Below are positions 3,315 to 21,051 of a stretch of 64,000 bases of DNA, one piece after another (position 1 is the first letter of the stretch; each line of letters starts with the position of its first letter). The notes under the pieces are model-generated. The model had not been told where the DNA came from. It saw only the letters and a program-made list of their open reading frames with translations, and searched no databases. A program made the translations under genes and the position numbers. This DNA is from Bacilli bacterium (GTDB lineage Bacteria > Bacillota_I > Bacilli_A > RFN20 > CAG-826): assembly GCA_017619815.1 (NCBI GenBank), contig JAFZRR010000062.1:18963-82962 (forward strand), given 5' to 3'.

Positions 3315-4466
3315 TTGACGCTTATGGCAAGAAGTACTATTAAAGAATACTTTCTATATGGTGGTGTCACCAAAGAAGAATATGACTCCATCCGTCCTTT
3401 GATTCAGGAAGAAAATCACCGTGTTTGGCGACTAGTATCTATTCTTTTTGAATTTGTCTTTATTGGCTTATTCATTTTTGCTGTCGTCGCAGAAATCAAT
3501 TACACTTGGACAATTGGTTATGGCATTCTTGCTGGTAGTATGGTTTTCTCCGTCCTTGCTTTCTTCGTTTTATTAAAACCACAATCCAAAGCATTATTAC
3601 CATTTATTTATGTTTCTTTAGCAATTTTATTAGGCGCATGTATATATATCGGTGTCTTCGCTGAACCCCATAGACCTTCGATTGTTGTTCCAGCAATTAT
3701 TATCGGTGTCACATTCTTAACGCTTGATAGGCCTATTAGATTTATCATTATGCAAATTGTTACTTTAGCGGCATTCATCACTTTGGTTTGTATTTTTAAA
3801 CAAAATCAACCAGAAGGGACCACTATGATAGGTGGAATCAATTCAGTTCTTTTAACTGATGTGATGTGTAGTGGTGTCTTTACCGCAGCGGGTGTCTTAA
3901 TTTCCTTATTCTTATCATCCATACGTATGAGAGATTTGGTTATGAGAAAGAATGCCGAACAAGAAAGAGATAGAGATGCTTTAACAAATGTTGCCAACAA
4001 ATTAGCGTATGATCGTAAAGTGGATTATATCAACGGCAAATTAGGAGATAGTAACTTTAAGTTCGCTGTCGCCATCTTTGACGTCAATGGTTTAAAACAA
4101 ACTAACGATACATATGGTCATGATCAAGGTGACAAATTACTTGTTAGATGTTGTGAATTAATACAAAGTTCATTCCCAAATACCCCTATCTATCGTATCG
4201 GTGGTGACGAATTCGCTGCGATCATTCTTGGAGAAGATTACACAAATAGAGAAAAACTCATTCGTGAATTCCATGAAAGAATTGAACATTCTCACGAAGA
4301 AGCGGAATCTTTGTTAGAAGATACAAGTATTGCGATAGGTGTAGCTATCTATAATCCAAAAAGAGATAGAGACTATTTATCAGTCTTCTCTCGCGCAGAT
4401 GCGGAGATGTACGATAATAAGAGAGTGACAAAAGCGAGAAACGCTTTCTTACAAGAGAATCAATAG
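3315..4466 (+). CDS. membrane-anchored diguanylate cyclase (GGDEF domain)
   Basis: There are 5-6 N-terminal TM helices. The C-terminal domain carries 'AIFDVNGLKQTNDTYGHDQGDKLL...RIGGDEFAAI', an intact GGDEF active-site motif. The track start is TTG at 3315, and an in-frame ATG at 3324 is an alternative. A terminator follows at 4470..4494. Confidence 0.8.
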   Translation: MTLMARSTIKEYFLYGGVTKEEYDSIRPLIQEENHRVWRLVSILFEFVFIGLFIFAVVAEINYTWTIGYGILAGSMVFSVLAFFVLLKPQSKALLPFIYVSLAILLGACIYIGVFAEPHRPSIVVPAIIIGVTFLTLDRPIRFIIMQIVTLAAFITLVCIFKQNQPEGTTMIGGINSVLLTDVMCSGVFTAAGVLISLFLSSIRMRDLVMRKNAEQERDRDALTNVANKLAYDRKVDYINGKLGDSNFKFAVAIFDVNGLKQTNDTYGHDQGDKLLVRCCELIQSSFPNTPIYRIGGDEFAAIILGEDYTNREKLIREFHERIEHSHEEAESLLEDTSIAIGVAIYNPKRDRDYLSVFSRADAEMYDNKRVTKARNAFLQENQ

Positions 4467-5701: not shown

Positions 5702-5916
5702 TGGGCTAATCCCACTTTTTATTTATTTTAATAAATAGTCAAAAAGTTCTTCACATATATACGCATTTCAGTATATATTATTTGTGCATGAGAATTAGGG
5801 TAGAAAGTCCCATTCTTAACTAGTTCGAAGCACATAACTATCATCCCATTCAATGAAATAGATATTCGTTGGATGATTTTGTCGTTTATACGATTATTCG
5901 AAAGGAAAATTTATTT

Positions 5917-6762
5917 ATGAAAAAGACAAAAATTTTAGTACCAGCAATGGCGATCTTAGCATTAGGTATGGCCGGTGCTGTTACAGGTACCGTCGCTTGG
6001 TACTCCAGCACAAACGTTGTTTATGCTAAAGGCTTAACAATCAAATCAACAACCGCATCCTCATTACAAATTTCATTAGAACAAAACACAGGTTATGGCA
6101 CAGTTGTTGATCACTCTGGCACAACAGGTGATGCAGCCTATATGACAGCTGCAGTTGATCCAGCTTATTGTTTAGATGCGCCAGGCACACTTACAGCTGC
6201 TCCAGAATTTGTTTACTTAGACAAAATGAAAGTTGACAATCCAGGTAGTGGTACGGGCGAAGACAAATGGTATGTTGACGCTGCAGGTAAAGTACGTGTA
6301 TTCGCAGATAATACTTTAGTTGCCCCAGCTCATGCTGTCGCAAGCGGTGAAAACGCAAACCCATGGGTTGATGATGATCCAGAAGAAGGTACTGGTCGTT
6401 ATACAAACGTTAAATCTGACTCCGATTGGCTCAAATTAGACTCCACAGAAGAAAATCCTTCTAAAACAGTTACAGTCAAAGTCCACTTCTCTAGAGGTGC
6501 TGAACCAAAATTAATTGATAGAGCAATGTCATTCGGTTTCTACAATGTCAATACAAAGAAATGGGAAGTTGAAAAACCATTCACAGGTGATAATGTTTCC
6601 GCAACTAGTGTTGATGTTACATTCACACCCGTTACAGTTACAAAAACACCATCTGAATATATCTTCTATATGTGGTATGATGGTGAAGATGATGTCACAA
6701 TCAACGCCAACGCTATTGTTAACCCAATCGCTGCCGACATCACATACAGAATTTCTGACTAA
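5917..6762 (+). CDS. secreted protein with a SipW-cognate (TasA/camelysin-type) signal peptide
   Basis: The start was moved to ATG 5917, which has RBS AAAGGAAA; the track ORF begins at 5869. The N-terminus 'MKKTKILVPAMAILALGMAGAVTGTVAWYSS' resembles the TasA 'GGGTWAAFND' / camelysin 'GGTFAYFSD' class. A strong terminator follows at 6781..6806. Confidence 0.6.
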   Translation: MKKTKILVPAMAILALGMAGAVTGTVAWYSSTNVVYAKGLTIKSTTASSLQISLEQNTGYGTVVDHSGTTGDAAYMTAAVDPAYCLDAPGTLTAAPEFVYLDKMKVDNPGSGTGEDKWYVDAAGKVRVFADNTLVAPAHAVASGENANPWVDDDPEEGTGRYTNVKSDSDWLKLDSTEENPSKTVTVKVHFSRGAEPKLIDRAMSFGFYNVNTKKWEVEKPFTGDNVSATSVDVTFTPVTVTKTPSEYIFYMWYDGEDDVTINANAIVNPIAADITYRISD

Positions 6763-6780
6763 TTAATTAGCGTAATTAAA

Positions 6781-6806
6781 CTCCCGTTTCGGCGGGAGTT
6801 TTTTTA
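6781..6806 (+). terminator. rho-independent terminator
   Basis: The perfect hairpin CTCCCG-TTTCGG-CGGGAG is followed by TTTTTTT. Confidence 0.8.
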
Positions 6807-6976
6807 TGGATTTAGTAAAATAATTTGCTATACTAAACAAAGATTACAATGCACATTAGTAAGTAGAGTGCTTTGCACTCGATGATTTCAGATTATGACG
6901 CATAACCCACAAAACAAACAAAATAGTTTGATTATTTTCAATAAATGTTTATGATTTAATTAAGTGGGAATGAATT

Positions 6977-7369
6977 ATGAATAAAACCGCAAAAAAAATT
7001 CTAGTATTCACAGGGTTAGGACTTGATGTTGCTCTAACACTTTTCTTATTTGTCGTTGCTATTATTATGATTGCAACTATGCCAAAAGATTCTTTAGCTA
7101 TGGATCATGCGATTGAAACAAATGGCAAATTCATTGGTTATTTACAACAACATTCGACTTTGTACTTATTAACTTGTGTGCTTCCATTATTTGTTTTACT
7201 AGCTGGAAATATTGCTATTTTGATTCTTTATGTTCGTAAAATTAATAAAAAGAAAGAAGCTGCTATTGATGATCTTAATGAAGAACAAAAAGCCGCTCTC
7301 CGTGCAGAATTATTAAAAGAGCTTCAAAGCGAAGCAAAAGAATCTGAAGAAGATAAAAAGTCTGAATAA
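6977..7369 (+). CDS. small membrane protein with a KE-rich C-terminal tail
   Basis: There are two TM helices and a charged coiled-coil tail. A terminator-like hairpin follows at 7401..7431. Confidence 0.5.
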   Translation: MNKTAKKILVFTGLGLDVALTLFLFVVAIIMIATMPKDSLAMDHAIETNGKFIGYLQQHSTLYLLTCVLPLFVLLAGNIAILILYVRKINKKKEAAIDDLNEEQKAALRAELLKELQSEAKESEEDKKSE

Positions 7370-7451
7370 TCAAATAATATCAAACTATAAAAATCAAAAT
7401 AGCGCCGTTAAATCGGTGCTTTTTGTTTCCTTATTATAAATAAAATTAATG

Positions 7452-7481
7452 TTGACAAGATAAATATGATTCCTATATATT
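7452..7481 (+). promoter_or_regulatory. sigma-A-like promoter driving riboswitch 1
   Basis: TTGACA is at 7452-7457, and a 17-18 nt spacer leads to TATATT at about 7476-7481. The aptamer begins about 14 nt downstream. Confidence 0.45.
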
Positions 7482-7492
7482 TGATTATGTAA

Positions 7493-7572
7493 AAAGCAAA
7501 ACAGTAGTGATACTGTGACGCAAAACTATAGGGTCTTAATAAATAAGGGGTAAGACAGCCAGTTGCCTTGTG
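7493..7572 (+). promoter_or_regulatory. c-di-GMP-I (GEMM-I) riboswitch aptamer 1
   Basis: AGCAAAAC-[CAGUA-GUGA-UACUG]-UGACGCAAAACUAUAGGGUCUUA...UAAGACAGCCAGUUGCC. The P2 hairpin has a GNRA (GUGA) tetraloop. The hallmark 'GACGCAAA(A/G)CUAUAGGGUC' is present. The P3 stem is GUCUUA/UAAGAC, and P1 pairs GCAA with UUGC. All of this matches the GEMM-I consensus as in Vc2 ('GGGCAAACC...GGACGCAAAGCC...'). Confidence 0.8.
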
Positions 7573-7620
7573 GATAGAAACAAAACCACTGTTATGATGA
7601 TAGGCAATGGCTTTTTGTTT
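7560..7620 (+). terminator. riboswitch 1 expression-platform terminator
   Basis: The 5' arm CAGUUGCCU is the P1 3' strand. It can pair with AGGCAAUGG at about 7601-7609, which is followed by CUUUUUGUUUU. This is mutually exclusive with P1, which implies an ON switch. Confidence 0.5.
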
Positions 7621-7676
7621 TAGTCCTTGGGACACATATTAATAAAAGACAAGCACTATTAAATTCAATTTTCAAT

Positions 7677-8456
7677 ATGGTCGATCTTAAATACATACGC
7701 AAACGTAAGACAAGACGAATCATAGCGGCGGTTGGAACTTCTTGTGCTGCAACAGCGATTATTATGATGGCTATTGCATTATTAGGTCAGAGGGCCGCTC
7801 CTTTAACTGTTACTTTGTCTAACAGTGGGGCGCAGCTTGCTTTATCTCAACATGCAGAGGAAGATTCTAATGCTGTTTATTTGGTAGCAGATTCAGTTCC
7901 GAGATATGATGAGTTCTGTGAAGAACAACTCATTTTAGCCAACAATGAATTGGAAATAGATGACGAAAATACTTATTCTCATTTAACTCCAAATGAACAG
8001 TCTACACTTTTCTTTAAGTATACATTCTATGTTACTAACAAAGGAAAGAGCGCAGCTAACTATGATTTGACTTTGTCAATGTCTCAACCAACCAAAGACG
8101 CGACGAATCGATACGATCTCGATTCTGTTTTGCGTGTGCGCTTCTACGAAAATAAAAATTTAGATGAGCACAACTACGTTACGTACGCGAAGAAAAGTTC
8201 CGAACCACACAAAGATGAAAACGGTAATCTTTCTTGGAAAGAAAAAGTTTCCGCTTTAGATGAAAGTGGATATGCAGAAGAATTCGTAAATTCTAGAACA
8301 ATTCTTACTTCCGCGGTTACTGGTTTAAAACCACAAGAAAAGATTAGATATACATTTGTATTTTGGATTGAGGGCGATGATCCACAATGCATGGATGAAG
8401 CCCCTGTTAATAGTGCACTTATCCTTGGAGTCGAAATAAGTGCGCACGAATCGTAA
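7677..8456 (+). CDS. secreted or membrane-anchored protein, first gene of the riboswitch-1 operon
   Basis: The N-terminal signal-anchor is 'RRIIAAVGTSCAATAIIMMAIALLG'. No known domain was recognised. The start lies 57 nt after the riboswitch terminator. Confidence 0.55.
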   Translation: MVDLKYIRKRKTRRIIAAVGTSCAATAIIMMAIALLGQRAAPLTVTLSNSGAQLALSQHAEEDSNAVYLVADSVPRYDEFCEEQLILANNELEIDDENTYSHLTPNEQSTLFFKYTFYVTNKGKSAANYDLTLSMSQPTKDATNRYDLDSVLRVRFYENKNLDEHNYVTYAKKSSEPHKDENGNLSWKEKVSALDESGYAEEFVNSRTILTSAVTGLKPQEKIRYTFVFWIEGDDPQCMDEAPVNSALILGVEISAHES

Positions 8457-9537
8457 AATATTCAACATAGCAAAAGACCGACTAATAATGCTGGCAACAG
8501 CAGTATTGTTCAATGTATCTCTCGCAGCAGTCGTCTGCGGGACTTTTGCTTGGTATTCGTACGCGACGCGCACAGGATTGGAAAAAGCATATCATGGAAC
8601 CACCGTTGGTGACATGGGATCATTACAAGCCGGTTTGGTTAGTGAGATTCAATTAGAAGACTATCTTGAATATGATTTAGCTGAAGATGACAGAACACTT
8701 GCCGACGAAGGTAAATACATTTACTGGTGTCAAGAAAATATTGCTGCAAGAACAATTAATTATGTTTTAGATAGCAATGGATATGCTACAACTGAAATGT
8801 ATCCAGTTACTTCCAGCGCTTTTGATTGGAGTGTGGAGAATCCAGAGTCTTTTTCACTATATTCAACACCTACTTATCTAAAAAATTATGATAAAAACGA
8901 TCTAGACTTTTTAGCTAATCCAAGAGACTACTCAGTCATGGATTTTGTTTTTAGATTTGAAGATATTGATAACATTGGCGAATATTTACCTGGTTATAAT
9001 GTTTTTCTTTCTGGCTGCAAAGTCGAAACTTCAAATGAAGAACACGAGATTTATAAATCAGTTCGCATTTTTTACAACAACGGATACGAAGGTGGCATAA
9101 TAAACCCAACAGCGACAGAAAATGGTTTTGATGTTGTTGGTGGTGTTCTCGATTTGAATGCCGATAACTTTTATGATTATGATGAAGAAACTTTCTTTGA
9201 AACAATATATGGTGAAGTCGAAAGTTTTGAATACAATTCAGAAGCAACAGAAAATGATGGAACACTTCCTTGGTATGAAACCGATACATTTATTTCCAAC
9301 CATAAAAAAGGTGTCTTTGCCCTTAATGACGAAACATTTGTTCCTAAAACCGTAAATTATATCGAAGGTGGTAGATTCACTTCCAAAGCGAAACGTATCA
9401 CCTATACAGATGAAACATACCATAATCTTGGCCGTTTTAAGATGTATTTATATTTTGAGGGTTGGGATACACATGTTGTTAATGAAGAGCAAGGATTTGG
9501 TTATAACCTTGATTTAGCATTCGCAGTGCAAATGTAA
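8440..9537 (+). CDS. secreted protein with a SipW-cognate-type signal peptide
   Basis: The start is GTG, with GGAG 10 nt upstream. The N-terminus 'MRTNRKIF...LMLATAVLFNVSLAAVVCGTFAWYSYA' carries the shared motif. Confidence 0.6.
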   Translation: MRTNRKIFNIAKDRLIMLATAVLFNVSLAAVVCGTFAWYSYATRTGLEKAYHGTTVGDMGSLQAGLVSEIQLEDYLEYDLAEDDRTLADEGKYIYWCQENIAARTINYVLDSNGYATTEMYPVTSSAFDWSVENPESFSLYSTPTYLKNYDKNDLDFLANPRDYSVMDFVFRFEDIDNIGEYLPGYNVFLSGCKVETSNEEHEIYKSVRIFYNNGYEGGIINPTATENGFDVVGGVLDLNADNFYDYDEETFFETIYGEVESFEYNSEATENDGTLPWYETDTFISNHKKGVFALNDETFVPKTVNYIEGGRFTSKAKRITYTDETYHNLGRFKMYLYFEGWDTHVVNEEQGFGYNLDLAFAVQM

Positions 9538-10625
9538 TGTACTATATGGACAAGAAAAAAGTAGCATTATTTGGAATAGCTGGATTGTCGCTTGTATTAG
9601 CGGCATCTATTTCTATGACTATCGCTTGGTATAACGGTAGTTCGTATTTAGCTATTAATCAGATTAACGTTGGCTTACATGATAAGAAATTATCTATTTC
9701 CACAGATAATGAAACTTTTAGAGATTTCATTCCTAACGATGAACTGAATAAGGTTGGTAAATTCAGGGCCGTTAGTACGATGTTCTGCGAGGACTGGATT
9801 GAAAGAAAAGAAGCAAAACCTGTATTTAAAGGTAGTTTTGGTACATCATCCAAAGATGTTGTTAATAGTGTGGATGATGCCAACAATACCTCAGGCGGGT
9901 ACTTCTCACAAGAAATCTTCATCAAGTGTGATTCCTCTGTTTATTTAACGTTAGATCCAGAACTAACCACATTTAATTCCGATGAAGAAGAAAACTTAAG
10001 TATGATTCAGGATTTACGTGAAAAATTCCCTGGTTTAACTGACGAGGAAATCTTATTCAACCTCAACAACGTTGTTAAATCATTGCGTATTTCGCTTCTC
10101 GTCTTAAATGATACAGGGGATGAAAGTGAAGAATTTCCTGATTATGCCTACTATATTATTGACCCATTTAAGGATAAAATAACTTTAATGGGTGGTATCC
10201 TAGATACCGATAAAGATGGTTTCTACGACTATTCTTTAGATAAAAATGAAGTCCTATACGGTCAGTCAATCTCGACTGACGAGGAAAAGTCAGTGGAAGA
10301 ATGTATCGTTTATAAAGATCCTACTGAAGCTGATGAAGAAGTAAGCACAAAAGAACTCACATGCTTTACTTCCGGCAACAAAGCAAATGTTAGAAAAATT
10401 GATTTCGATGCTTCGTTTGCCAACGGCCTGGCTATTAAAGAGGAACGTTCAACCGCTCTCGAAGATGTGGAAGAACAAGTTTTAATTCCACTTGAAGCCG
10501 ATGTCTCGAAGAGAATTATCTTATCTTTCTACCAAGAAGGATGGGACATCGAAAATACGGACTTCGTTAGATATTCTCATTTCTATGTGAATGTCATGTT
10601 TAAAATTGCCAGGGCTAGATTTTAG
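9537..10625 (+). CDS. secreted protein with a SipW-cognate-type signal peptide
   Basis: The N-terminus is 'MDKKKVALFGIAGLSLVLAASISMTIAWYNGSS'. The start overlaps the upstream stop as TAATG. Confidence 0.6.
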   Translation: MYYMDKKKVALFGIAGLSLVLAASISMTIAWYNGSSYLAINQINVGLHDKKLSISTDNETFRDFIPNDELNKVGKFRAVSTMFCEDWIERKEAKPVFKGSFGTSSKDVVNSVDDANNTSGGYFSQEIFIKCDSSVYLTLDPELTTFNSDEEENLSMIQDLREKFPGLTDEEILFNLNNVVKSLRISLLVLNDTGDESEEFPDYAYYIIDPFKDKITLMGGILDTDKDGFYDYSLDKNEVLYGQSISTDEEKSVEECIVYKDPTEADEEVSTKELTCFTSGNKANVRKIDFDASFANGLAIKEERSTALEDVEEQVLIPLEADVSKRIILSFYQEGWDIENTDFVRYSHFYVNVMFKIARARF

Positions 10626-10636
10626 GAGGTGGACTT

Positions 10637-12187
10637 ATGTCTGCATATTTTAATTATTTAGGGAAGTTGCTTGCTCAATTCTTTAGAGATTTAGCAGCGT
10701 TTTTCTATCATTTGATAGTGTGTCCATGGGGTGGCCACAGTAAAGGTTGGCCAAACATTGGATATAATTTCAAACTTTATAACGATTATTTGAAGGCATA
10801 TTCGCCAGAATTTGGTCCTCTAGGCTGGATTATGTGGGTGTTATTCTTATTACTCGCTATCGGCATGATCGGTGGTGCGTGTTATGGATTATTCCTACTT
10901 ATCCGTAAGTATGTTAAGTTCGCTAAGACTGAACTTGATAAAGATGCTTTAAAACGTCAAGTCGAAAGACTCAATTACGAGTTATATGACATGATGAAAG
11001 AAAGAGATAAGATTCTTGAATTAAAGATGAAATCTTTAGGTATTGACGGAAAACGTCCACCTGAAGAAGGTATGTCTGAAGAAGAACAAACTATCGATGA
11101 GATTCAATCTCGTTTCCCAAAATTATCACACGTTGATAATGAATATAACGGAAAAGATATGTCTATTCCTGAAGTCCCAGATCTTACTCTTGCACAAGTT
11201 TGCGAAAACTTCAGAAACTTCGCAGCAAGCCAAATGGGCTTGTATTACACAATCGACACCATCCGTCATGTTATTGCCGGTATCGGTGCGGGTAAAATTG
11301 TCATCCTTGAAGGTATTTCCGGTACAGGTAAAACCTCCATGCCTTATGCCTTAGGAAAATTCCTCAAGAACGATGCCAATATTTGTTCTGTCCAACCTAA
11401 CTGGAAGGATAGAAGTGAACTCTTAGGTTACTACAATGAATTCACAAAGAAATTCAATGAATCAGAATTCTTAAGAGCCTTATATACTTCTATTTATAGA
11501 AGAGATGTTAACATTATCGTCCTCGACGAAATGAACTTAGCTCGTGTCGAATACTACTTCGCCGAGTTCTTATCCATTCTTGAAATGCCTAATCCAAATG
11601 AATGGAATATTGAAATGATTGGTTCTCGTGACCCTCACGATCCAAAACTATTTAAAAATGGCAAAATTAAAGTCCCACAAAATGTGTTCTTCTTTGGAAC
11701 AGCGAACAACGACGATAGTACATTCACAATTTCCGATAAGGTCTATGACCGTGCTATCTGTTTATTCTTTGACAATAAAGGTATTGCCTTTGATGCTCCA
11801 TTCCAAGGACCAATGGATATTCCTTATGAACAACTTCAACACTTATATGATGAAGCTCTTGAGAAATTCCCAGTGAGTGAGAAGACACTTGAAAACTTCG
11901 CTTTATTAGATGACTTCGTTATTAAAAAGTTCAGATTGGCGTTTGGTAACCGTATTTTGAAACAACTCAAACAATTCGTTCCATGCTTCGTTGCCTGTGG
12001 TGGCACTGAACTCGATGGTATCGACTTCATCTTTACTAATAAAATTCTTAAGAAGTTCGAATCCTTAAACATCGGCTTCTTAAAACAAGAACTTAAAGAA
12101 CTTAATCAAATGCTCGATAAATTGTTCGGCACAAACACATTCCCAATGGCCCGTAACTTTATCGATCGTATGATTAGAATGAACTAA
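10637..12187 (+). CDS. membrane-anchored AAA+ ATPase of the AAA_5 / McrB-like family
   Basis: RBS GGAGGTGG precedes the start. There is an N-terminal TM ('WIMWVLFLLLAIGMIGGACYGLFLLI') and a coiled coil. Walker A is 'ILEGISGTGKTSMPYALGKF' and Walker B is 'IIVLDEMNLARVEYYFAEFLSILE'. The sensor region 'FFFGTANNDDSTFTISDKVYDRA' follows the McrB/MoxR-dynein pattern. Confidence 0.7.
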   Translation: MSAYFNYLGKLLAQFFRDLAAFFYHLIVCPWGGHSKGWPNIGYNFKLYNDYLKAYSPEFGPLGWIMWVLFLLLAIGMIGGACYGLFLLIRKYVKFAKTELDKDALKRQVERLNYELYDMMKERDKILELKMKSLGIDGKRPPEEGMSEEEQTIDEIQSRFPKLSHVDNEYNGKDMSIPEVPDLTLAQVCENFRNFAASQMGLYYTIDTIRHVIAGIGAGKIVILEGISGTGKTSMPYALGKFLKNDANICSVQPNWKDRSELLGYYNEFTKKFNESEFLRALYTSIYRRDVNIIVLDEMNLARVEYYFAEFLSILEMPNPNEWNIEMIGSRDPHDPKLFKNGKIKVPQNVFFFGTANNDDSTFTISDKVYDRAICLFFDNKGIAFDAPFQGPMDIPYEQLQHLYDEALEKFPVSEKTLENFALLDDFVIKKFRLAFGNRILKQLKQFVPCFVACGGTELDGIDFIFTNKILKKFESLNIGFLKQELKELNQMLDKLFGTNTFPMARNFIDRMIRMN

Positions 12188-12239
12188 TTTTAATAAGCAA
12201 AAATTTGCTTATTATTTCCCCTTATATTAAACTATTACT

Positions 12240-14903
12240 ATGGCAAAATTATCAAAATATCAAACTCTCCAGAAGAAATTAATGGCTCAGACAACTAAGT
12301 TGTTTGATCTTAGTGATGCCAAAGAGCTTTATACTGCACTTTCTAATGGTCAAAATTCTTATTTAAGATTTGATAGATTTGAAAGTACCGCCATGGATAT
12401 GACATGGATTAAACAAATTGAAGACTGTATCCCAGACCTCAATGAAATCGTTTCTAATCCAAAAAGAACTATTCAAACTCTCGCTGAAGTCGTGGAAGTG
12501 GAAAAAGTTAAAAGAACTACCCACGAATCTGTTCAGCATTTAGCGAGCCATTCTCAATTCGTTAAAACCATTGATGAAGATGGAAATGTTACTCCATCTA
12601 AGATTTTGAATGTTTACAACGATGACTTCTTTGCAATTTACGAAAATAAATTCGTTGCTACATTATTAAGAAGATTATTCTTATTCGTGGAAAAGAGATA
12701 TGACTACATCATCCATCAAGCGACATTAAAAGATGTTGAGTTGTTATATTTCAAAAACAAAACCGAAATCAATGGTAGTGAAATTGAGATTGAAACAAAA
12801 ATCAGATATTCAAAACCAGCTTTGGATGAAGCAGATGAAAAATTAAAAGAAATGCTTCGCAGAATTAATGATATTAGAAGATATCTTAGATTCTTTGGTG
12901 GTTCTGAATTTATGAGAATCTTACATCGTGAAAGAGATGTTAGAAACCCAATTCTTCAAACAAACATTATTCGTAAGAACCCAAAATACAGACACTGCTA
13001 CCATTTGTGGCAATTTATCAATTCATATAATGAATCTGGTGTCGAAATTAAAGTTGAAGAAAACTTTGCTAAATTAACCGAAGAAGACTTAAAAGAAATT
13101 AATAAGGTTTTAACTATTAACTTCTTAGCCTTGAAAGGTAGAGATGCACCAGTTCAAGAAGCTAAACCAAAGATTTACCGTCCTCGTATTTTAAGAACGT
13201 ATGACGATGAAATGTACAATCCAGGTGCATCTTTTGACTCACCTGTGGAATTCGTTCGTGTTGATGAGAAATATCGTCAATATAAGGAAACTTTGAAAGA
13301 TCTCAATCCTCATCCTACTAAGGCGTACGCGGAATATATGAAAAATGAGTACGCGGATAATAAATTAAGAAGAGAAGAAACCGCTCAAAAGGATTCTTTA
13401 ATTAAGCGTAAAGAAAACGAATACAAGAAATACGAAAAGACCCAAGAAGAACTTCTCATCAAAGAACAAGAAGATTGGGAAATGATTGGTGATCTTGCTG
13501 AACAACAAATTCAGGAAGAACAAGAAGAAAGACTTAGACCACTTCGTGAAAAACTCGGTATCCAAGGTGATGAAGATGAAACAAGAATTAACGATGCCAT
13601 CTCCACTGAAGGACGTATGCAAGAAATCATCGAAGATGCTCCTATTAGAAAACCTTCTCAACCAGTCGAAGAAGAACCAGAAGAACTCGACTCCATGCCA
13701 ATTGAAGTGGCGGAAGAAGTCGTTAGTAAAAAAGAGCCTCAAAAAGAAGAATCACAACAACCAGCCGAACAACCTAAAGAAGAAAAAGTTAAGGGCAGTT
13801 GGGGTGGTGCTCGTGCAGGTGCTGGTCGTAAACCAAAACCACGTCCTGAACCTGTAGAGGAAGTTCAAGAAGAACAACCACAACCTGAACCAGAACCAGT
13901 CGTGGAAGAAAAGACTGAAGAACCTGTTAAAGTTAAGGGTTCATGGGGCGGAGCACGTCCAGGCGCAGGTAGAAAACGTAAGGTTGTTGAACCAGTAGAA
14001 GAAGCTCCTGTTGAGGAAGAACCTGTGGTTGAAACTCAACCAGAACCTGTCCAAGAACAAGAACCAGTCAAGGTCAAAGGATCTTGGGGTGGTGCAAGAC
14101 CTGGCGCAGGCCGCAAACGCAAAGTGGTTGAAGAACAACCTCAAGAAACTCAACCAGAGCCGCAGCCAGAACCAGTTATAGAAGAACCTCAACCAGTTGC
14201 TGAACAACGTGTCAAAGGTAGTTGGGGCGGAGCTAGACCAGGCGCAGGAAGAAAACGCAAAATCGTTGCAGAACCTGAAGAAGTTAAGGGAGAAACTCCT
14301 ACAGAACCAGAGCCAATTAATGAATCAGAACCAGTAAAAGTGAAAGGCTCATGGGGAGGTGCACGTCCAGGTGCTGGTCGTAAACGTAAAGTGGTGGAAG
14401 AACAACCACAAGAAGCTGCTCCAATTGAAGAAAAACCAGTTGAACAACCACAACCTATAGAAGAAAAAGTTAAAGGATCTTGGGGTGGTGCAAGACCTGG
14501 AGCTGGTAGAAAACGTAAGGTTGTTGAACCTGAACCAGTCGTTGAAGAAACACCAGTTCAAGAAACTCCTATAACAGAAGAACAACCAGTTAAAAAACAA
14601 CGTGGTGGTTATCGCCCAGGTGCAGGTAGGAAACCGAAGAAACCAGTGGTTCATATGGAAGCAGTGGAAAACACACCTGCTGAAGTTGTTATTAAAAAGC
14701 AAAGAGGTGGCGCACGTCCTGGTGCAGGTCGTAAACCAAAACCAAAGACCGAGCAACCTATTAAAGGCAAATGGGGAGGCGCAAGACCAGGAGCTGGCCG
14801 TAAGCCAAAACCAAAATCTGATGTGCCAGTCGTAAAGAAACAACGTGGTGGAGCACGTCCTGGTGCAGGAAGAAAACCAAAACCACGTCCAGAAAACGAA
14901 TAA
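12240..14903 (+). CDS. cytoplasmic repeat protein: about 330-aa N-terminal domain, an E/K/Q/P-rich linker, then about ten 'GGARPGAGRK(R/P)K' basic repeats
   Basis: There is no signal peptide. The units 'VKGSWGGARPGAGRKRKVVE' recur every 42-48 aa from about aa 517, and the final four are 'KKQRGGARPGAGRKPKP'. It is tightly linked within the operon. Confidence 0.6.
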   Translation: MAKLSKYQTLQKKLMAQTTKLFDLSDAKELYTALSNGQNSYLRFDRFESTAMDMTWIKQIEDCIPDLNEIVSNPKRTIQTLAEVVEVEKVKRTTHESVQHLASHSQFVKTIDEDGNVTPSKILNVYNDDFFAIYENKFVATLLRRLFLFVEKRYDYIIHQATLKDVELLYFKNKTEINGSEIEIETKIRYSKPALDEADEKLKEMLRRINDIRRYLRFFGGSEFMRILHRERDVRNPILQTNIIRKNPKYRHCYHLWQFINSYNESGVEIKVEENFAKLTEEDLKEINKVLTINFLALKGRDAPVQEAKPKIYRPRILRTYDDEMYNPGASFDSPVEFVRVDEKYRQYKETLKDLNPHPTKAYAEYMKNEYADNKLRREETAQKDSLIKRKENEYKKYEKTQEELLIKEQEDWEMIGDLAEQQIQEEQEERLRPLREKLGIQGDEDETRINDAISTEGRMQEIIEDAPIRKPSQPVEEEPEELDSMPIEVAEEVVSKKEPQKEESQQPAEQPKEEKVKGSWGGARAGAGRKPKPRPEPVEEVQEEQPQPEPEPVVEEKTEEPVKVKGSWGGARPGAGRKRKVVEPVEEAPVEEEPVVETQPEPVQEQEPVKVKGSWGGARPGAGRKRKVVEEQPQETQPEPQPEPVIEEPQPVAEQRVKGSWGGARPGAGRKRKIVAEPEEVKGETPTEPEPINESEPVKVKGSWGGARPGAGRKRKVVEEQPQEAAPIEEKPVEQPQPIEEKVKGSWGGARPGAGRKRKVVEPEPVVEETPVQETPITEEQPVKKQRGGYRPGAGRKPKKPVVHMEAVENTPAEVVIKKQRGGARPGAGRKPKPKTEQPIKGKWGGARPGAGRKPKPKSDVPVVKKQRGGARPGAGRKPKPRPENE
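13786..14900 (+). repeat. in-frame coding tandem repeats (about 126-144 bp units, degenerate) encoding the GGARPGAGRK motifs
   Basis: AAGGG(T/A)TC(A/T)TGGGG(T/C)GG(T/A)GC(A/T)(C/A)G(T/A)CC(A/T)GG(T/C)GC(A/T)GG(T/C)(C/A)G(T/A)AAAC(G/C)(T/A)AA recurs at 13792, 13933, 14071, 14215, 14341, 14467, 14590, 14695, 14764 and 14839. Confidence 0.8.
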
Positions 14904-14916
14904 AAAGAATTAATTT

Positions 14917-15696
14917 ATGTTTGGAAAAGACAAAAAAGAGAAAAAACCTAAAAGTAAAGCCAGGAAGATAATCGATTGGGTTGTCACTGGTGTCTTTGTG
15001 GCATTAATTACTGGAGTAGTCGTTGTCCAAATTATAAATAAAACAAGTAAGAACCAATTCGTCCTCGGACCTCAATATCAAAAGGTTCTTACAGACTCAA
15101 TGTCCCCTGTCTATAAAGTTAACGATATTATTGTCGTTGAAAAGACAAGTGCAGCAGATTTGTATAAAAGGGTGAATGAGAAACACCAAGATGTTGATCT
15201 TTCATTTAAATGGGATATTGATGGCCAAGAAGTTTCTATGACGCATAGACTTCAAACAGTGACGTATTCCGAGGAAGTCCAATTTGATCCAATCTCTGGC
15301 GTTGGATACCATTACACATTTGTCGCACATGGTATCAATAAAACCAGTGAATGGTGTAAAGGCACTGGTGGCTACTATGATTGTACAAATCAAACTCAAA
15401 CGTTCCATGAGGATGCAATCATAGGAAGAGTAACTAGAAAGAGTTACTTGATGACCTTTGCGACATCTATATGGGGATTACTAATATTATTATTAGTGCC
15501 TTGTATGTATCTCATCATTGCGAGTGTGCTTGATATATTCAAAGCGGTGAAAGATGATGATGAAGTTCCTGCAAATGGTGAAGTAGTGGGTGAAGCCAGT
15601 GATAAACCAAAAGATCCACTTGCTGGATTAAGTGAAAAAGAAAAAGAAAAACTCAAGAAGCAAATGCTTGATGAAATGTTAGGAAAGAAAAAATAG
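14917..15696 (+). CDS. sipW: SipW-type (S26B, archaeal/ER-type) signal peptidase I
   Basis: The N-terminal TM is followed by 'VLTDSMSPVYKVNDIIVVEK' (B. subtilis SipW has 'VLSGSMEPTFKTGSLIAVKK', catalytic Ser). The catalytic His context 'SMTHRLQTV' parallels SipW 'AVTHRIVDI'. There is a C-terminal TM anchor and a KE-rich tail. Confidence 0.75.
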   Translation: MFGKDKKEKKPKSKARKIIDWVVTGVFVALITGVVVVQIINKTSKNQFVLGPQYQKVLTDSMSPVYKVNDIIVVEKTSAADLYKRVNEKHQDVDLSFKWDIDGQEVSMTHRLQTVTYSEEVQFDPISGVGYHYTFVAHGINKTSEWCKGTGGYYDCTNQTQTFHEDAIIGRVTRKSYLMTFATSIWGLLILLLVPCMYLIIASVLDIFKAVKDDDEVPANGEVVGEASDKPKDPLAGLSEKEKEKLKKQMLDEMLGKKK

Positions 15697-15717
15697 TTAG
15701 AAAGGAGAAGCGAAAGT

Positions 15718-17253
15718 ATGTACAAACAAAAAAGAACTGCTCGTGCGTTATTTATTGTCTTTCTTGTTTTTACAGTTGTTGGATTGATTAGCATTGTTGC
15801 TTATCAATTTGTGCCACAGTTAAAGGACTATCACTTTATTACTTTAGGTGCTGCTTTAATCACATGTGGTTATGCTGCGGTTGCTTTTGCTAACCTTTAT
15901 AAATTAATTTCCTACAATGAACAAATCCGTTCTCTTTATGTGGAAAATAGATACAACCTTTCTCGTGAAAGCTTGTTCTATAACTACACAATGTTTGAAA
16001 AGAGAATTAATAAATTAACCAAATTACATAAGAAATCGGGTTCTTATATCATTGCATTCACTGCATCAAAGAGAACCGTCATGAGAAACTTATATAGAAA
16101 CGGAACTGTTACTCAATTAAATGGTTTCATTTCTGACTCATTAAACGAAATCTTGAGTCATAACAAACAATATGAACAAGATGATTTTGCATATTGTTAT
16201 TACCATGGCCAATTTGTCATCTATACATACTTACCACTTAACAAAGTGCAAGATATCATTTTGAACATTCAAAAAGAAATCTACGCAATTGTGGCAAGAA
16301 ATGACTTAAAGGTTTATACAATACCATATTTCGGTGTTGCGGATGTGAGACCAGAATTATCTTTATTTGAATGTTTAGATAACGCATTAACTGCAAGAGA
16401 TTATTCTGAAAAGCACTTTGAAGCGGAAACATTCTATTCTGATGATTTAAGAAAAGATGCTTCTTTAAGTGAAGTTGAAGAATTAAGAGAAGCTATCAAG
16501 AACAATGAAATGGAAGTTTATTATCAACCAAAATTCCATTTAGCCACGAAGAGGTTTGTGGGCTGTGAAGCTTTGGTGAGATGGAATTCTCCAAGATATG
16601 GTTTATTAGCACCAGGCAGATTCTTAGATAAAGCAGAAATCTCTGGTTTAATTCATGAAATTGATATGTTTGTCTTTAAACGTGTCTGTGAAGACTTAGC
16701 GTCCATTCGTAGAAAAGGTGACAGAATGCTTCCTGTCTCTGTCAATTTCTCTATGTATGAATTCTATTCACAAGACTTCTTTGACAACATCTCAAAGATT
16801 ATTAATAAAACCGGTGTTTCTACTTCTTTGATCCAAATTGAAGTTACTGAAACAACCGCACAAGCAAATCCATTTATGACCACATCTATTCTTAAGAAAC
16901 TAAAAGAAAATGGTTTCCGTATTTTAATGGATGACTTTGGTTTAGGTTTTTCTAACCTAGGTAATTTAAACAGAATGGAATTTGATACAGTTAAGATTGA
17001 TAAGACATTTATCGATGGTTTAATTACCGACGCAAAGAGTAGAGAAATCGTTAAATTCTTAATTGCTTTATGTAAAACAAACAATATGGAAGTTATCGCT
17101 GAAGGTGTTGATAAGGTGGAACAAGTGGAAATCTTAAGAAAAGCCAAATGTGATGTTATTCAAGGTTTCTATTATTCCAAACCATTACCAATCAGAGATT
17201 ATCAAGACTTCCTAAAGAATAACCCATTTGAAAAGAAAGAGGAGGCTGAATAG
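15718..17253 (+). CDS. membrane-anchored c-di-GMP phosphodiesterase (EAL domain)
   Basis: RBS AAAGGAGAAG precedes the start and there are 2 N-terminal TM helices. The EAL motifs are intact: 'GCEALVRWNSP', 'LMDDFGLGFSNL', 'IAEGVDKVEQ' and 'QGFYYSKP'. Confidence 0.8.
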   Translation: MYKQKRTARALFIVFLVFTVVGLISIVAYQFVPQLKDYHFITLGAALITCGYAAVAFANLYKLISYNEQIRSLYVENRYNLSRESLFYNYTMFEKRINKLTKLHKKSGSYIIAFTASKRTVMRNLYRNGTVTQLNGFISDSLNEILSHNKQYEQDDFAYCYYHGQFVIYTYLPLNKVQDIILNIQKEIYAIVARNDLKVYTIPYFGVADVRPELSLFECLDNALTARDYSEKHFEAETFYSDDLRKDASLSEVEELREAIKNNEMEVYYQPKFHLATKRFVGCEALVRWNSPRYGLLAPGRFLDKAEISGLIHEIDMFVFKRVCEDLASIRRKGDRMLPVSVNFSMYEFYSQDFFDNISKIINKTGVSTSLIQIEVTETTAQANPFMTTSILKKLKENGFRILMDDFGLGFSNLGNLNRMEFDTVKIDKTFIDGLITDAKSREIVKFLIALCKTNNMEVIAEGVDKVEQVEILRKAKCDVIQGFYYSKPLPIRDYQDFLKNNPFEKKEEAE

Positions 17254-17254
17254 T

Positions 17255-17992
17255 ATGATTTTGATCGTTGGCAGTAATCATGATGATGTCATCTATTTTC
17301 AAAGTGCATTAAAAGACGCTAAAGAAGAAATTATTCTTAACAAGTATCGTGCATCTATCGGCACCATCCTCAATCAAAACGTGATGGTTCTTCAAGATGT
17401 CTATACATCCTATGTTAGCAGTGCATTATTAACTCATATCATTGAGAAATACTTCGTTCTCATGGTATTTGTCGTCGGCACATGTTTTGCGCAAAATAAA
17501 GCCTTAAAAGTGGGAGATATCGCTATCAGCGAAATGGCGACATTTGGTGATGTTGATCAAATCAAAATGCTCAAAGGTACAAATCTTGGTCAAATCCCAG
17601 GATACCCACAACTCTTCTATTCCCATAAAGAATTAATTAGAAATATGGAAGAAGCTCTCAACAGTGTTGGAGCGAATAACTATATGCGCTGCACATTTAT
17701 GAATTCTTCCTACTATAGAAGAGATGAACAATTAATCGAAGAATTATCAATGGAAGATAATATCGCAAATAGAAATAAGAACACTGTCCTTGATGGTGTG
17801 ACAACTGGTGTTGCTTTAGCGGCACATCTATTTGATATTCCATTTATTTCCGTCAAAGTCATTGAAGGACAAGCTGGACAAAGAACATCCATTGATTCAT
17901 ATATGACAATTCTTGAAGAATATAGTGTTGTCGGAAAAGCCGTTACTGTCTGTATTGGTGAAATCAGCCGTAACGATGTTTTGAGAGGATAA
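17255..17992 (+). CDS. MTA/SAH-nucleosidase (Pfs/PNP_UDP_1) family protein, divergent at catalytic positions
   Basis: The start was moved to ATG 17255, which has RBS AGAGGAGG. 'KVGDIAISEMATFGDVDQ' matches Pfs 'KVGDIVVSDEARYHDADV', 'IPGYP' matches 'LPGCP', and 'VTTGVALAAHLFDIPFISVKVIEG' matches '[25 protein letters not shown]'. The Pfs catalytic Asp197 and Glu174 equivalents appear to be replaced by G and D. Confidence 0.55.
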   Translation: MILIVGSNHDDVIYFQSALKDAKEEIILNKYRASIGTILNQNVMVLQDVYTSYVSSALLTHIIEKYFVLMVFVVGTCFAQNKALKVGDIAISEMATFGDVDQIKMLKGTNLGQIPGYPQLFYSHKELIRNMEEALNSVGANNYMRCTFMNSSYYRRDEQLIEELSMEDNIANRNKNTVLDGVTTGVALAAHLFDIPFISVKVIEGQAGQRTSIDSYMTILEEYSVVGKAVTVCIGEISRNDVLRG

Positions 17993-17997
17993 TAATT

Positions 17998-20900
17998 ATG
18001 AAACAAAAACAACAATCCTCATTAAGAACATATATTTCTAAGAGTTACTTAGCTTTAATCATTATCGCAGCGGTGATGATTATTTCACTAGGTTTATTCT
18101 TAGTTGGTTTTATCGTTTTAGATGGAACGCTTCAATTAGTATTTGAAATAGTGGGTGGCTCTCTCTTACTACTTTCACTTATTGGAGTATTTGTTTTATT
18201 CATTCTTTCATCCGAAAAACAATATAACTTGTTCTATAACACCCTTTACAAGGGAAGTATGAAGAACTTAGAAGCTATTAAAGATAGAAATTTAGAAGTT
18301 GATCAAATTCCTGATGAATCAGTGAAAGAATTCCAAGAAATTAACGAAATCTTCAATGATATTAATGATCAATATAAAGGCAAAATTATTACTTCTAAAG
18401 AAGGCGATATTGAGAATATCCCATTAGAATACTTTGATGATGAAAAAGTATTGGTCAGCTATGACTCATTGATGAATAACATCGTTGATTTAATTATTGT
18501 TACCAAATCATTTAGAAATGCTTTAGTGGAAATCTATTATGACTTACAAGCGGAAGATATCTCTGAAAACGATGAGAAGAGAATCTTAAATAAGATTAAA
18601 GAAGGTCTTCAATATAAGAACTTATTAATTTCTAAGAACAAGAAACAAAATGGTTTCATTATTTATGTTCCTGTCTTTGATAGTGTTTCTCAACTTCAAG
18701 AAGAAATCGAAGGCTTGTTCCGTCACATTTCTATTATCAAGAGAACAAATGAAGGTAGAAAGATTGTCGCTCCAAAAGTAGCGATAGTTATTTATCCATA
18801 TTCTTCACCAGAAAATATGGTCAATGATTTAGCAATCGCAAAGAGAAGTGATAAGACAATTAATGTCTTCTTACCATCTAAAGAAAATAAAGCTAATAAT
18901 TCTCCATTATTCGAAAATCTCAATGTTAATGAATTAGCAAAGATATCTGAAAGATTGGATTTATTAGATATCGATGATGTTGATGGTCAAAAAGAAATCA
19001 ATCGCGCCTTGAATGATATTTGTAATTACTTCTCATTCACATCTGTTGGCTACGCAAAACTCAATAAAGTTAAGAAACAATTCCTTTGTGAATATTCATA
19101 TTCTCCAGAAGAAAAACACTTAGTATTACAAGAAAAACCAATCTCCGCGAAGTTTATCAATAAATTAGTGGAAGTTAAAGATAGTGATCAATCTTACTAT
19201 TTCAGCAATAGACAACACCTTAATGATTCTTTAGCGGCGTTTATCGATAGTCACGAAATCAAATCTGGTTTGTTCTATCTCGTTATGAAAGATGGTATCG
19301 CTGTCGGTGTTATTTACTATCTCAATAACGATAAAGAGATGGAATACGATTGTTCCATCAAGCAAGGTTTAATTAATATTTCCAACAAGATTGGTAATTA
19401 CATCAAATCTATTGATGATCAACATATCGCAAATATCAACGCGAAGAGATTCCAAGAAGTCTTAAAACTCAATAATGATATTCTCTATTCTGTTAACCCA
19501 GATGATTATTCATTATTCTTTGTGTCCGCAGCGCTTCAATCTATTTGTCCAAGTGCACAAATAGGTGAGAAGTGTCATAAAGCCTTATATGGTAGTGATA
19601 CTCCATGTAAAGCTTGTCCACTTGTGACCAAGAAACATATGGTGGAAATCTTAAAACGTCGTAAATTTGAAACTAGTGTCGTTTTACATAACTCCGAAGA
19701 TAAAGCGGAACACCTATACTTAAAACCAATGGAAAAGAATAAGAATACAAGTGACTTGTTCTCACCTGATTTCTTAATCAATTCCTATTACTCCTTCTGC
19801 TCATACTTAGAAGATGAATTCGCCTTAGAACATGAAGGTGAAATCTTATTCTTAAATATCGATAACGTTCCTCAATTAATTAAATCATTAGGTAACGATG
19901 GTTATATCAAGGCGATTAGAAACTTCTTTGATGCTATTAGAGAAGAAATTGATATGAACTTAACATTATATTTATATAAGAATGATAACTTTGCGTTATT
20001 ATTCCCAAGCAGTTCAAAAGAAGATGTTATCTCTTTAACCGAATCCTTGTATAGCCTTGCTAAACAAAATATGGTGGGTAGCAAACAAGCTGCATTAAAC
20101 ATTTCTTACTATGACTTCAAATACCCTGAATCAAGCAAGGAATATAAATTATGGATAAATCATGCCGAAAAAGTCATGACAGGTCTCAGAAGAGGCAAAA
20201 AGACCGATTTAATTTACTTTAATGAAGATAAGTACACTAGAAGTGCTTCTAGAGAAGAATTCATGCTTCAAAATGTTCTCGAAGCCTTCAAGAGAAAGAA
20301 ATACTTCATGGAATATCAACCAATTGTTGGCAATAGAGATAGAGTTATCCATGGTGCTGAATTATTGCTCAGATTAAACGATCCATTTACCAATGCTCCA
20401 CTTAACATTGGTGAGGCAATCAATATCGTGACCAAACACAACCGTATTGATTTGGTCGCAGAAGCTATGACTGATTGTCTAGAAAAATTATTCCAAGTTG
20501 CGGATTTACCATTCTTCCAATCCATGGGCCTAGAACATTTATCTGTGAACGTTGATTATCAAACATTATCTGATAAATCATTTATTGAAAGCTTTGATTC
20601 TTTAACCAAGAAACATAACGTTCCAAAAGGATTTATCTGCTTTGAAGTTCCTGAATCTGACATTATGGATCATTATGATGAATTTAGAGATTTACACTTC
20701 GAAAACGAAGTCTTGGTGTGTGACCAATATCATGGTGAACTCTTAAGACTTGACCAATTACAAGCTATTGGATTTAAAGAAGTTAAGATGTCTAGAGACG
20801 TTATCTTAAATATCATTAATGATGACGTTGCCTTACAACGCGCGAATGATGTTTGGAAGTTTGCAAACGAAATCGGTATGTTTGTGACATTTGTCGGTGT

Positions 20901-21051
20901 TGAAAAACGTCAACAAGCTGACTTATTACATGATGATGTCCGTGATAGTAACTTCCAAGGTCGATTCTTCTATTCCCCAATGAGTGAAGAGAAGTTCTTC
21001 AAGACATTACGTGAATCCTCAATTAAATCAATTGCGGATTTAGATAACTAA
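17998..21051 (+). CDS. large membrane-anchored protein with a C-terminal degenerate EAL domain (candidate c-di-GMP sensor)
   Basis: There are 2 N-terminal TM helices and a Cys cluster, 'CPSAQIGEKCHKALYGSDTPCKACP'. The C-terminus 'EYQPIVGNRDRVIHGAELLLRL' is EAL-like with the catalytic E retained, but the DDFG(T/A)G metal-binding motif is replaced by 'DQYHGE'. 'FVGVEKRQQ' and 'QGRFFYSP' are retained. Confidence 0.65.
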   Translation: MKQKQQSSLRTYISKSYLALIIIAAVMIISLGLFLVGFIVLDGTLQLVFEIVGGSLLLLSLIGVFVLFILSSEKQYNLFYNTLYKGSMKNLEAIKDRNLEVDQIPDESVKEFQEINEIFNDINDQYKGKIITSKEGDIENIPLEYFDDEKVLVSYDSLMNNIVDLIIVTKSFRNALVEIYYDLQAEDISENDEKRILNKIKEGLQYKNLLISKNKKQNGFIIYVPVFDSVSQLQEEIEGLFRHISIIKRTNEGRKIVAPKVAIVIYPYSSPENMVNDLAIAKRSDKTINVFLPSKENKANNSPLFENLNVNELAKISERLDLLDIDDVDGQKEINRALNDICNYFSFTSVGYAKLNKVKKQFLCEYSYSPEEKHLVLQEKPISAKFINKLVEVKDSDQSYYFSNRQHLNDSLAAFIDSHEIKSGLFYLVMKDGIAVGVIYYLNNDKEMEYDCSIKQGLINISNKIGNYIKSIDDQHIANINAKRFQEVLKLNNDILYSVNPDDYSLFFVSAALQSICPSAQIGEKCHKALYGSDTPCKACPLVTKKHMVEILKRRKFETSVVLHNSEDKAEHLYLKPMEKNKNTSDLFSPDFLINSYYSFCSYLEDEFALEHEGEILFLNIDNVPQLIKSLGNDGYIKAIRNFFDAIREEIDMNLTLYLYKNDNFALLFPSSSKEDVISLTESLYSLAKQNMVGSKQAALNISYYDFKYPESSKEYKLWINHAEKVMTGLRRGKKTDLIYFNEDKYTRSASREEFMLQNVLEAFKRKKYFMEYQPIVGNRDRVIHGAELLLRLNDPFTNAPLNIGEAINIVTKHNRIDLVAEAMTDCLEKLFQVADLPFFQSMGLEHLSVNVDYQTLSDKSFIESFDSLTKKHNVPKGFICFEVPESDIMDHYDEFRDLHFENEVLVCDQYHGELLRLDQLQAIGFKEVKMSRDVILNIINDDVALQRANDVWKFANEIGMFVTFVGVEKRQQADLLHDDVRDSNFQGRFFYSPMSEEKFFKTLRESSIKSIADLDN

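Follow-up and report, generated by a model that had tools for sequence, protein, structure and literature searches.

The C-terminal tail of an 887-amino-acid (aa) protein from a Bacilli bacterium contains exactly ten copies, all in frame, of a basic unit 18 aa long, and the core of this unit is a peptide that also occurs as an N-terminal arm on phage small terminases and on other proteins that act on DNA. The protein is encoded by open reading frame (ORF) 12240–14903 of a 64,000-nucleotide stretch of contig JAFZRR010000062.1 (GenBank assembly GCA_017619815.1), referred to here as the window; coordinates are window positions, on the plus strand from 5869 to 21051 unless marked otherwise. Its sequence suggests that it is the McrC-like partner of an adjoining membrane McrB-like protein. 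Because the same peptide forms the N-terminal arm of terminases and of ribbon-helix-helix (RHH), S24, HNH, and Endonuclease VII proteins, we propose, with moderate confidence, that the tail acts as a multivalent, low-specificity, AT-hook-like nucleic-acid-binding array of terminase-type arms.

The array, with the core GGARPGAGRK(P/R)K, runs from 13788 to 14885, and its units are separated by acidic spacers rich in P, E, V, and Q. Units 1–5 lie at 13788–13841, 13932–13985, 14073–14126, 14211–14264, and 14340–14393, and units 6–10 at 14469–14522, 14589–14642, 14691–14744, 14760–14813, and 14832–14885. The initial annotation of this DNA, made by a model from the letters alone, had described about ten degenerate in-frame repeats with a period of 126–144 bp; the number and the frame hold, but the period is valid only for the first six or seven units, roughly two thirds of the array, and the last three stand closer together. 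Start-to-start distances are 144, 141, 138, 129, 129, 120, 102, 69, and 72 bp, each divisible by 3, and spacer length falls from 30 to 5 residues toward the C-terminus, leaving the last four units nearly bare. The consensus over all ten units is [V/I]K[GK][SKQ][WR]GG[AY]R[PA]GAGRK[PR]K. Six units read VKGSWGGAR(P/A)GAGRK(R/P)K and the remaining four (V/I)K(K/G)(Q/K)(R/W)GG(A/Y)RPGAGRKPK(P/K). Units 1–6 (13788–14522) are of the first type, with a motif charge of +5/+6 and spacer charges of −6 to −9; units 7–10 (14589–14885), of the 'KKQRGG…GAGRKPKP' type, have short spacers and are strongly basic. GGARPGAGRK is exact in eight of the ten units, and the full 12-mer GGARPGAGRKPK is exact in units 8–10. 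A back-translated core pattern matched the window eight times, with no match expected (100 shuffles). In the tail, 68% of the residues are E, P, G, K, or V, a composition which indicates that its ~375 residues are disordered. A 164-aa antisense ORF (14349–14843, minus strand) inside the repeat region is a by-product of its repetitive, stop-poor composition, and nothing marks it as a gene.

Selection on the motif peptide is confirmed by the way in which the copies differ. Within the 11-codon core, identity between copies is 43% at third codon positions and 90% at first and second positions, and core codon pairs differ by 249 synonymous vs. 39 non-synonymous changes; the peptide is under purifying selection while the DNA beneath it drifts, as the initial annotation had argued from synonymous drift. 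Comparison with strain P0124, a member of the 90% cluster, points the same way: substitutions fall at 22 of 227 spacer positions and 7 of 502 N-terminal positions but at none of 117 core positions (P ~1e-4 under uniform placement), so that in this comparison spacers change ~7 times as fast as the folded domain. An in-frame deletion of 41 aa has left P0124 with nine units.

This difference of ten and nine copies in a strain pair, together with variation in copy number between species, is what might be said for the array being an assembly artefact or a slippage-driven, phase-variable repeat, as raised by the initial annotation, which asked whether this is a contingency locus. We find this explanation scarcely credible. 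Four contigs, which derive from two samples or more (ENA ERZ27256909, Logan SRR12529214), encode the exact 887-aa sequence, identical to the NCBI metagenome-assembled genome (MAG) protein MBO4856809.1, and three further 887-aa variants that differ by 1–2 residues all have ten copies, so the ten-copy form recurs across independent assemblies. Pairwise DNA identity between the copies is just 60–84%, the longest exact repeat is 29 nt, and every indel is in frame. Tandem Repeats Finder, the kind of program suggested in the initial annotation for finding the repeat in DNA, called no array here because the copies are too diverged. A contingency repeat locus was rejected on these grounds, and the array is confirmed as real. 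Nor is the repeat absent from all close homologs, which the initial annotation had named as a sign of artefact, as sister species carry 3–7 units.

The motif has a wide distribution outside this protein. A back-translated pattern scan of IMG/VR with GGARPGAGRKPK gave, among the matches listed, more than 120 matched contigs, where our own estimate of the chance expectation is well under one match (~22 fixed bases). Among these listed matches the motif is almost always within ~15 residues of the start of proteins of ~55–230 aa, and the 12-mer is invariant in the 105 unique viral proteins that carry it. The top PHROG matches of these 105 proteins are all terminase small subunits, namely phrog_641 (34), phrog_18735 (32), and phrog_83 (29), along with 2538, 309, 57, and 141; Pfam Terminase_4 and DUF1441 are also among the matches. 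Carriers in general protein databases are likewise small proteins, with 1–3 copies near the N-terminus. The domains recognized in carriers are Peptidase_S24, RHH_1, NikA-like, RepB-RCR_reg, HNH, Endonuclease_7, DUF559, and Terminase_4; every identified partner domain acts on DNA, and no Pfam-matched carrier comes from a non-DNA family. This distribution marks GGARPGAGRKPK as a widespread N-terminal arm, apparently unannotated, that phage small terminases share with further proteins acting on DNA.

The window protein and the phage proteins (phrog_641, 18735, 83, 2538, 309, and 57, and the Terminase_4 and DUF1441 carriers) share the same peptide but differ in how it is deployed. The phage arm is one copy, or up to three, at the extreme N-terminus of a small oligomeric protein, whereas the window protein is a cellular protein with ten tandem copies at its C-terminal end. 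When units 7–10 were searched with phmmer against 1.84 billion representative proteins, seven proteins were found at E<=0.001, one of them a family member. The only other long array among these representatives is in P0246, a 425-aa metagenomic protein from an uncultured organism with six tandem, near-identical KSKRGGARPGAGRKPKVAK units N-terminal of a Peptidase_S24 domain (LexA/CI/UmuD-like); the ten copies of the window protein are the longest array seen. The near identity of the P0246 units suggests recent duplication, and that array differs from ours in being N-terminal and fused to a self-cleaving repressor-type domain. A literature string search for the motif peptide returned nothing, a search on terminase and AT-hook returned nothing relevant, and the tail had no Pfam match even at E<=10, in agreement with the initial annotation, which did not recognize the motif as a described domain.

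The initial annotation had compared the motif to AT-hook or RGG-like repeats, and the former comparison survives by association while the latter does not. AT-hook proteins include HMGA, Myxococcus CarD, and the RGR-type hooks of H-NS and Lsr2. The tail resembles them in having a short Gly/Arg/Pro/Lys motif repeated in a disordered region beside an acidic region, although AT-hook proteins have no counterpart to the conserved GGARPGAG half of the window motif. Units of sister species (L128, L129, and P0247) read GAGRPRK(V) and so contain the AT-hook GRP core. In addition, the G-R-P/K-basic arm that precedes a DNA-binding domain sits in the minor groove in Hin, in resolvase-type helix-turn-helix domains, and in AT-hooks, a comparison that supports, but does not test, the proposed DNA binding. 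Canonical AT-hook membership itself was rejected, as the R-G-R-P core is absent from the window units and the Pfam model is unmatched. An RGG or glycine- and arginine-rich box was also rejected, since RGG occurs just once in each of units 7, 8, and 10 and in no other unit, with triplets at least 23 residues apart. Finally, a reading of 'GRKRKV' as resembling a nuclear localization signal was dropped in view of the absence of an export signal, the conserved operon, and the clear bacterial and phage pedigree of the motif.

The protein that carries the array is currently annotated only as 'DUF2357 domain-containing'. Its conserved N-terminal alpha/beta domain (aa 1–370; 12240–13349), for which 182 homologs were found, matches DUF2357 (Pfam PF09823, the McrC N-terminal domain) over aa 40–157 at 31.6 bits, above the gathering score of 23.3. 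An AlphaFold2 (AF2) model built from 100 homologs, with a pLDDT (predicted local distance difference test) score of 81, has an alpha/beta domain over approximately aa 1–300 with a long beta-hairpin at aa 164–193, followed by a long single helix at aa 368–453 (13341–13598), a coiled-coil segment. Residues 371–513 carry a net charge of −19. The protein resembles the McrC of Escherichia coli EcoKMcrBC in its DUF2357-type N-terminal domain and in being encoded directly downstream of a McrB-type NTPase gene, in line with the proposal of the initial annotation that it may be the specific partner, as adaptor or effector, of its neighbor. It differs in that E. coli McrC has a PD-(D/E)xK nuclease where this protein has a helix and a disordered basic tail; no nuclease family matched the 887-aa protein in Pfam, NCBIfam, or PADLOC, and the PD-(D/E)xK of canonical McrC is missing. 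The settings differ as well, as E. coli McrC works in restriction and the window protein is encoded in a fibre operon.

The adjoining gene (10637–12187) encodes a 516-aa McrB-like NTPase with a transmembrane (TM) segment at aa 57–90, a coiled coil at approximately aa 96–127, and an AAA_5 domain at aa 222–372 (23.6 bits, cut-off 22). Its best PDB sequence matches are E. coli McrB 6hz4 (E 0.002) and 7vsr, which bears out the earlier description of the partner as a membrane AAA_5 ATPase of McrB type. The GTANNDDS signature is invariant in four orthologs. The coiled coil is a weak coiled-coil-type match, and while the TM plus coiled-coil architecture is present, no FtsB/DivIC family match was found for this protein.

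The pair and a SipW-like signal peptidase encoded next to it appear to match the description of CoCoPALM, a McrBC-derived class that has been named but is uncharacterized. As introduced by Bell et al. (eLife 2024; PMC11090510), CoCoPALM has a McrB GTPase fused to an FtsB-like TM segment and coiled coil, coiled coils in the homologs of McrB and of McrC alike, an association with signal-peptidase-family proteins, and an NxD rather than NxxD signature, usually followed by D or E. That paper names the class, defers its description to a forthcoming paper, and makes no mention of cyclic di-GMP (c-di-GMP), riboswitches, disordered tails, or this motif (PMC11090510). The window shares with CoCoPALM a McrB-like NTPase with an N-terminal TM segment and coiled coil, a DUF2357 McrC homolog with a coiled coil, an adjacent signal-peptidase-family gene, and the lack of a nuclease. 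GTANNDDS can be read as N-N-D plus D in the CoCoPALM NxD style; an ungapped HMMER alignment to the E. coli NTAD gives NxxD. A search of the supplement of PMC11090510 for CoCoPALM examples found none, so membership of this lineage in that set is not confirmed, and a literature search for a later CoCoPALM paper found none.

The membrane anchor of the partner also lends some plausibility to a different role for the tail, in which the units, being basic and bearing Trp, would bind anionic lipids of the membrane, or polyanions of the envelope, and press the McrC-like subunit to the membrane beside its TM-anchored partner. Trp and K/R clusters do occur together in units 1–6 and 9, and polyanions had been proposed in the initial annotation. 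We consider this distinctly unlikely, however, because Arg stands in place of Trp in units 7, 8, and 10, as it does in the majority of orthologous units and the majority of phage copies, and the other carriers of the motif are soluble DNA-binding proteins. The 887-aa protein has no hydrophobic segment (maximum KD19 0.96) and thus neither a TM segment nor a signal peptide, as already noted in the initial annotation for the latter; teichoic acids, whose binding that annotation had suggested testing, would be out of reach of a protein without an export signal, and a secreted or teichoic-acid-binding protein was rejected on this ground.

A role in phage defense was also weighed, in which the array would be a decoy or sensor that mimics in cis the small-terminase ring of arms and competes for phage DNA or packaging partners. 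Such a role would be in keeping with the origin of McrBC in Type IV restriction, with the rapid copy-number evolution of the array, and with the occurrence of the motif chiefly as an arm of terminase small subunits, and the McrB-like protein matches the PADLOC candidate-defense model PDC-M26A (E 1.7e-39, aa 199–317). Still, we judge it very improbable: the pair has no nuclease or other effector domain, it is encoded in a conserved, riboswitch-controlled, housekeeping-type operon rather than a variable defense island, and the motif is missing from most family members. No PADLOC model matched any of the five further operon proteins scanned, among them the McrC-like protein and the SipW-like peptidase, and a literature search for PDC-M26 found nothing.

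Returning to the nucleic-acid-binding array, we envisage a complex in which the McrB-like ring would be kept in the membrane by its TM segment and coiled coil and, by analogy with McrC, the N-terminal ~370 aa of the McrC-like protein would dock on this ring. The ~85-residue helix and the ~375-aa tail would then stand in place of the absent McrC nuclease. Each unit may serve as an AT-hook-like arm that binds nucleic acid, probably in the DNA minor groove, and the acidic, proline-rich spacers could keep the arms extended and perhaps damp them electrostatically. The array as a whole would give the membrane-bound complex a multivalent, low-specificity attachment to DNA. Canonical McrB carries the nucleic-acid contact in its own N-terminal domain, and in this clade the array might supply that contact.

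Across strains and sister species the copy number of the array forms a series of 10, 9, 7, 5, 4, 3, and 0; sister species with N-terminal domains that are 90%, 85%, and ~75–80% identical carry 5, 7, 4, and 3 units, and sister protein P0003 has no units and a K/P-rich tail instead. The last three units are common to the whole clade. Where units 1–6 stand in the window protein, sister species have 1–3 'GAGRPRKVVE' units, so that units 1–6 appear to have arisen by expansion of a 'GAGR(P/K)RKVVE' unit specifically in this lineage. A terminal peptide, …KILxxNSSRxGKKFGRR, that is conserved in the closest clade is also missing from the window protein, where it has been lost. The tail is therefore an accessory, fast-evolving, lineage-specific module and not a core part of the machine, and its basic character is typical only of the wider clade to which the window belongs. 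Across the family (P0001–P0120; L128–L134), C-termini also include …FRSKKK after long K/P/E/V tails as well as purely acidic tails. Some mixed tails of distant homologs contain a small folded domain of ~50 aa, 'GYYVG…KARVY…GKIIK', and this C-terminal domain has no Pfam or PDB match.

Several observations weigh against the nucleic-acid-binding interpretation or against the assignments beneath it. Of the tails of 99 family members, 24 are basic, 30 acidic, and 31 mixed, with the remaining 14 absent or short, and this variation in charge means that nucleic-acid binding cannot be a conserved requirement of the system. Within the array, units 1–6 are charge-neutralized by their spacers. The window units read GAGRK(P/R)K, without GRP, and do not match Pfam AT_hook (PF02178) at E<=10. 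The motif is present in no PDB chain, and the DNA contact of the terminase arm is itself inferred from its position and partner domains. As to the subunit, a single partial Pfam match underlies its McrC assignment: an hhalign comparison with E. coli McrC gave a probability of 0.2%, Foldseek comparison of the N-domain AF2 model with the PDB gave no match at E<=0.001, and neither the sequence-profile nor the Foldseek comparison thus detects direct similarity to E. coli McrC. A profile search against the PDB likewise found nothing.

The same variability of the tail bears on whether its function may be mainly physical, as a disordered linker of block-polyampholyte type, a condensate former, or an entropic spacer, in which basic motifs pair with acidic spacers or with another acidic protein and not with nucleic acid. 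The regular alternation of +6 blocks with blocks of −6 to −9, the low-complexity composition, the fast evolution of the spacers, and the hypervariable charge and length of homologous tails, some of them purely acidic, all speak for such a tail. We nonetheless hold this to be unlikely as the main explanation, as it accounts neither for how strictly a 13-residue core is conserved among the ten copies and between strains and species nor for the identity of this core with an arm found only on DNA-acting proteins.

The genomic setting of the pair is conserved and linked to c-di-GMP. A c-di-GMP-I riboswitch aptamer (7485–7570; Rfam RF01051, 63.4 bits, gathering score 35) heads the operon, just downstream of a sigma-70-like promoter, TTGACA-18-TATATT (7452–7481), that agrees with the consensus at 11 of 12 positions in a consensus scan only. 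Each of the 12 loci examined, the window and 11 related loci (L123, L124, L125, L128, L132, L134, L136, L145, L147, L154, and L158), has such a riboswitch upstream and on the same strand. A fold prediction suggests an ON switch, since the 3′ arm of the aptamer pairs there with a possible terminator. The operon that follows encodes, in order, proteins of 259, 365, and 362 aa, the McrB-like and McrC-like proteins, the SipW-like peptidase, an EAL protein, a PNP_UDP_1 protein, and a second EAL protein, with genes that overlap or lie 5–52 nt apart and no convincing plus-strand terminator between 12100 and 17800. Gene order is kept around homologs down to 42% identity (L123–L125). The 136 relatives found in species-representative genomes are all from uncultured MAGs of rumen, gut, and related anaerobic samples, and most are labeled Bacilli, Bacillales, Erysipelotrichaceae, Mollicutes, or Candidatus Enterosoma.

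The first operon gene (7677–8456) encodes the 259-aa protein, which has an N-terminal TM segment or signal anchor, has an equivalent in L123–L125, and matches no family. The 365-aa protein (8440–9537) is exported and rich in beta structure, and its signal region (…CGTFAWYSYA) is of SipW/TasA type; its AF2 model (pLDDT 86) consists of an N-terminal helix and then a beta-rich domain, and as Foldseek found no significant PDB match, a TasA/AbpA-like fold is neither confirmed nor excluded. The 362-aa protein (9537–10625) has the same type of signal region (…MTIAWYNGS), and its position is conserved in L123–L125. So is that of the SipW-like peptidase (14917–15696), a signal peptidase I of endoplasmic reticulum/archaeal type with two TM segments, which matches NCBIfam NF046067 (1.3e-12) and TIGR02228 (3.2e-5), both below their curated (equivalog) cut-offs. 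An EAL phosphodiesterase of 511 aa, a PNP_UDP_1 protein of 254 aa, and an EAL membrane protein of 1017 aa complete the operon (15718–21051) in the same order as in L123–L125; the two EAL genes are at 15718–17253 and 17998–21051, and the gene between them is MTA/SAH-nucleosidase-like. The position of the pair behind a c-di-GMP-I riboswitch, among exported proteins, a SipW-like peptidase, and EAL proteins, implies that the complex is produced along with a surface fibre or matrix. A literature search on McrB and SipW returned nothing relevant.

A far-reaching extension of this association is that the pair could be a c-di-GMP-induced nucleic-acid motor coupled to a SipW-dependent surface fibre, for tethering, export, or uptake of DNA for the biofilm matrix. 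We regard this as improbable. If it were true, the ten arms would grip DNA in cis and present it to the NTPase, as the small-terminase ring does in trans, and the system would show McrBC domesticated, without defense or nuclease functions, to carry out DNA transactions at the cell envelope.

That the CoCoPALM class exists was already known, as were DNA-binding basic repeat tails as a kind; what is new here is that the motif is identical with a terminase arm that is widespread and apparently undescribed, that it has been expanded tenfold where McrC has its nuclease, and that a riboswitch invariably precedes the operon. CoCoPALM thereby gains a testable handle, in the form of a riboswitch-fronted operon and, in one clade, a nuclease-less McrC homolog with a probable nucleic-acid-binding array. 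The peptide GGARPGAGRKPK merits a family model of its own, and the series of 0–10 copies between close species is a natural experiment on the evolution of multivalency in a disordered tail. Should the tail not bind nucleic acid, the finding would shrink to a lineage-specific low-complexity tail of modest interest.

Further c-di-GMP-related and exported products are encoded around the operon. A GGDEF cyclase gene upstream (3315–4466) adds to a dense cluster of c-di-GMP enzymes. Also upstream of the riboswitch, an exported protein (5869–6762) has the same type of signal region (…GTVAWYSS) and is perhaps the major fibre subunit; the next gene (6977–7369) encodes a 130-aa protein with two TM segments, and equivalents of both are found in L123–L125. 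A second c-di-GMP-I riboswitch (31381–31457, minus strand) fronts giant ORFs at 26902–31377 and 22567–26883, both on the minus strand, whose 1491- and 1438-aa products, one with a Big_3 domain, are probably adhesins. Second riboswitches are also present downstream of the operon in L123, L124, L132, L134, and L136, and the GGC variant RF03167 is the scoring match for two of them.

Elsewhere in the window, ORFs 43101–44447, 44626–48606, 48724–52799, and 53056–56214 include genes for three proteins of the clostripain family (Peptidase_C11), of which two are fused to Big_2 repeats. The three flank four tandem ORFs of 332–339 aa, of which the first, the one scanned, has no Pfam match. Finally, an M18 aminopeptidase (1719–3206) has an N-terminal HTH_17 domain (aa 3–44), which represents either an unusual fusion or an over-extended start.

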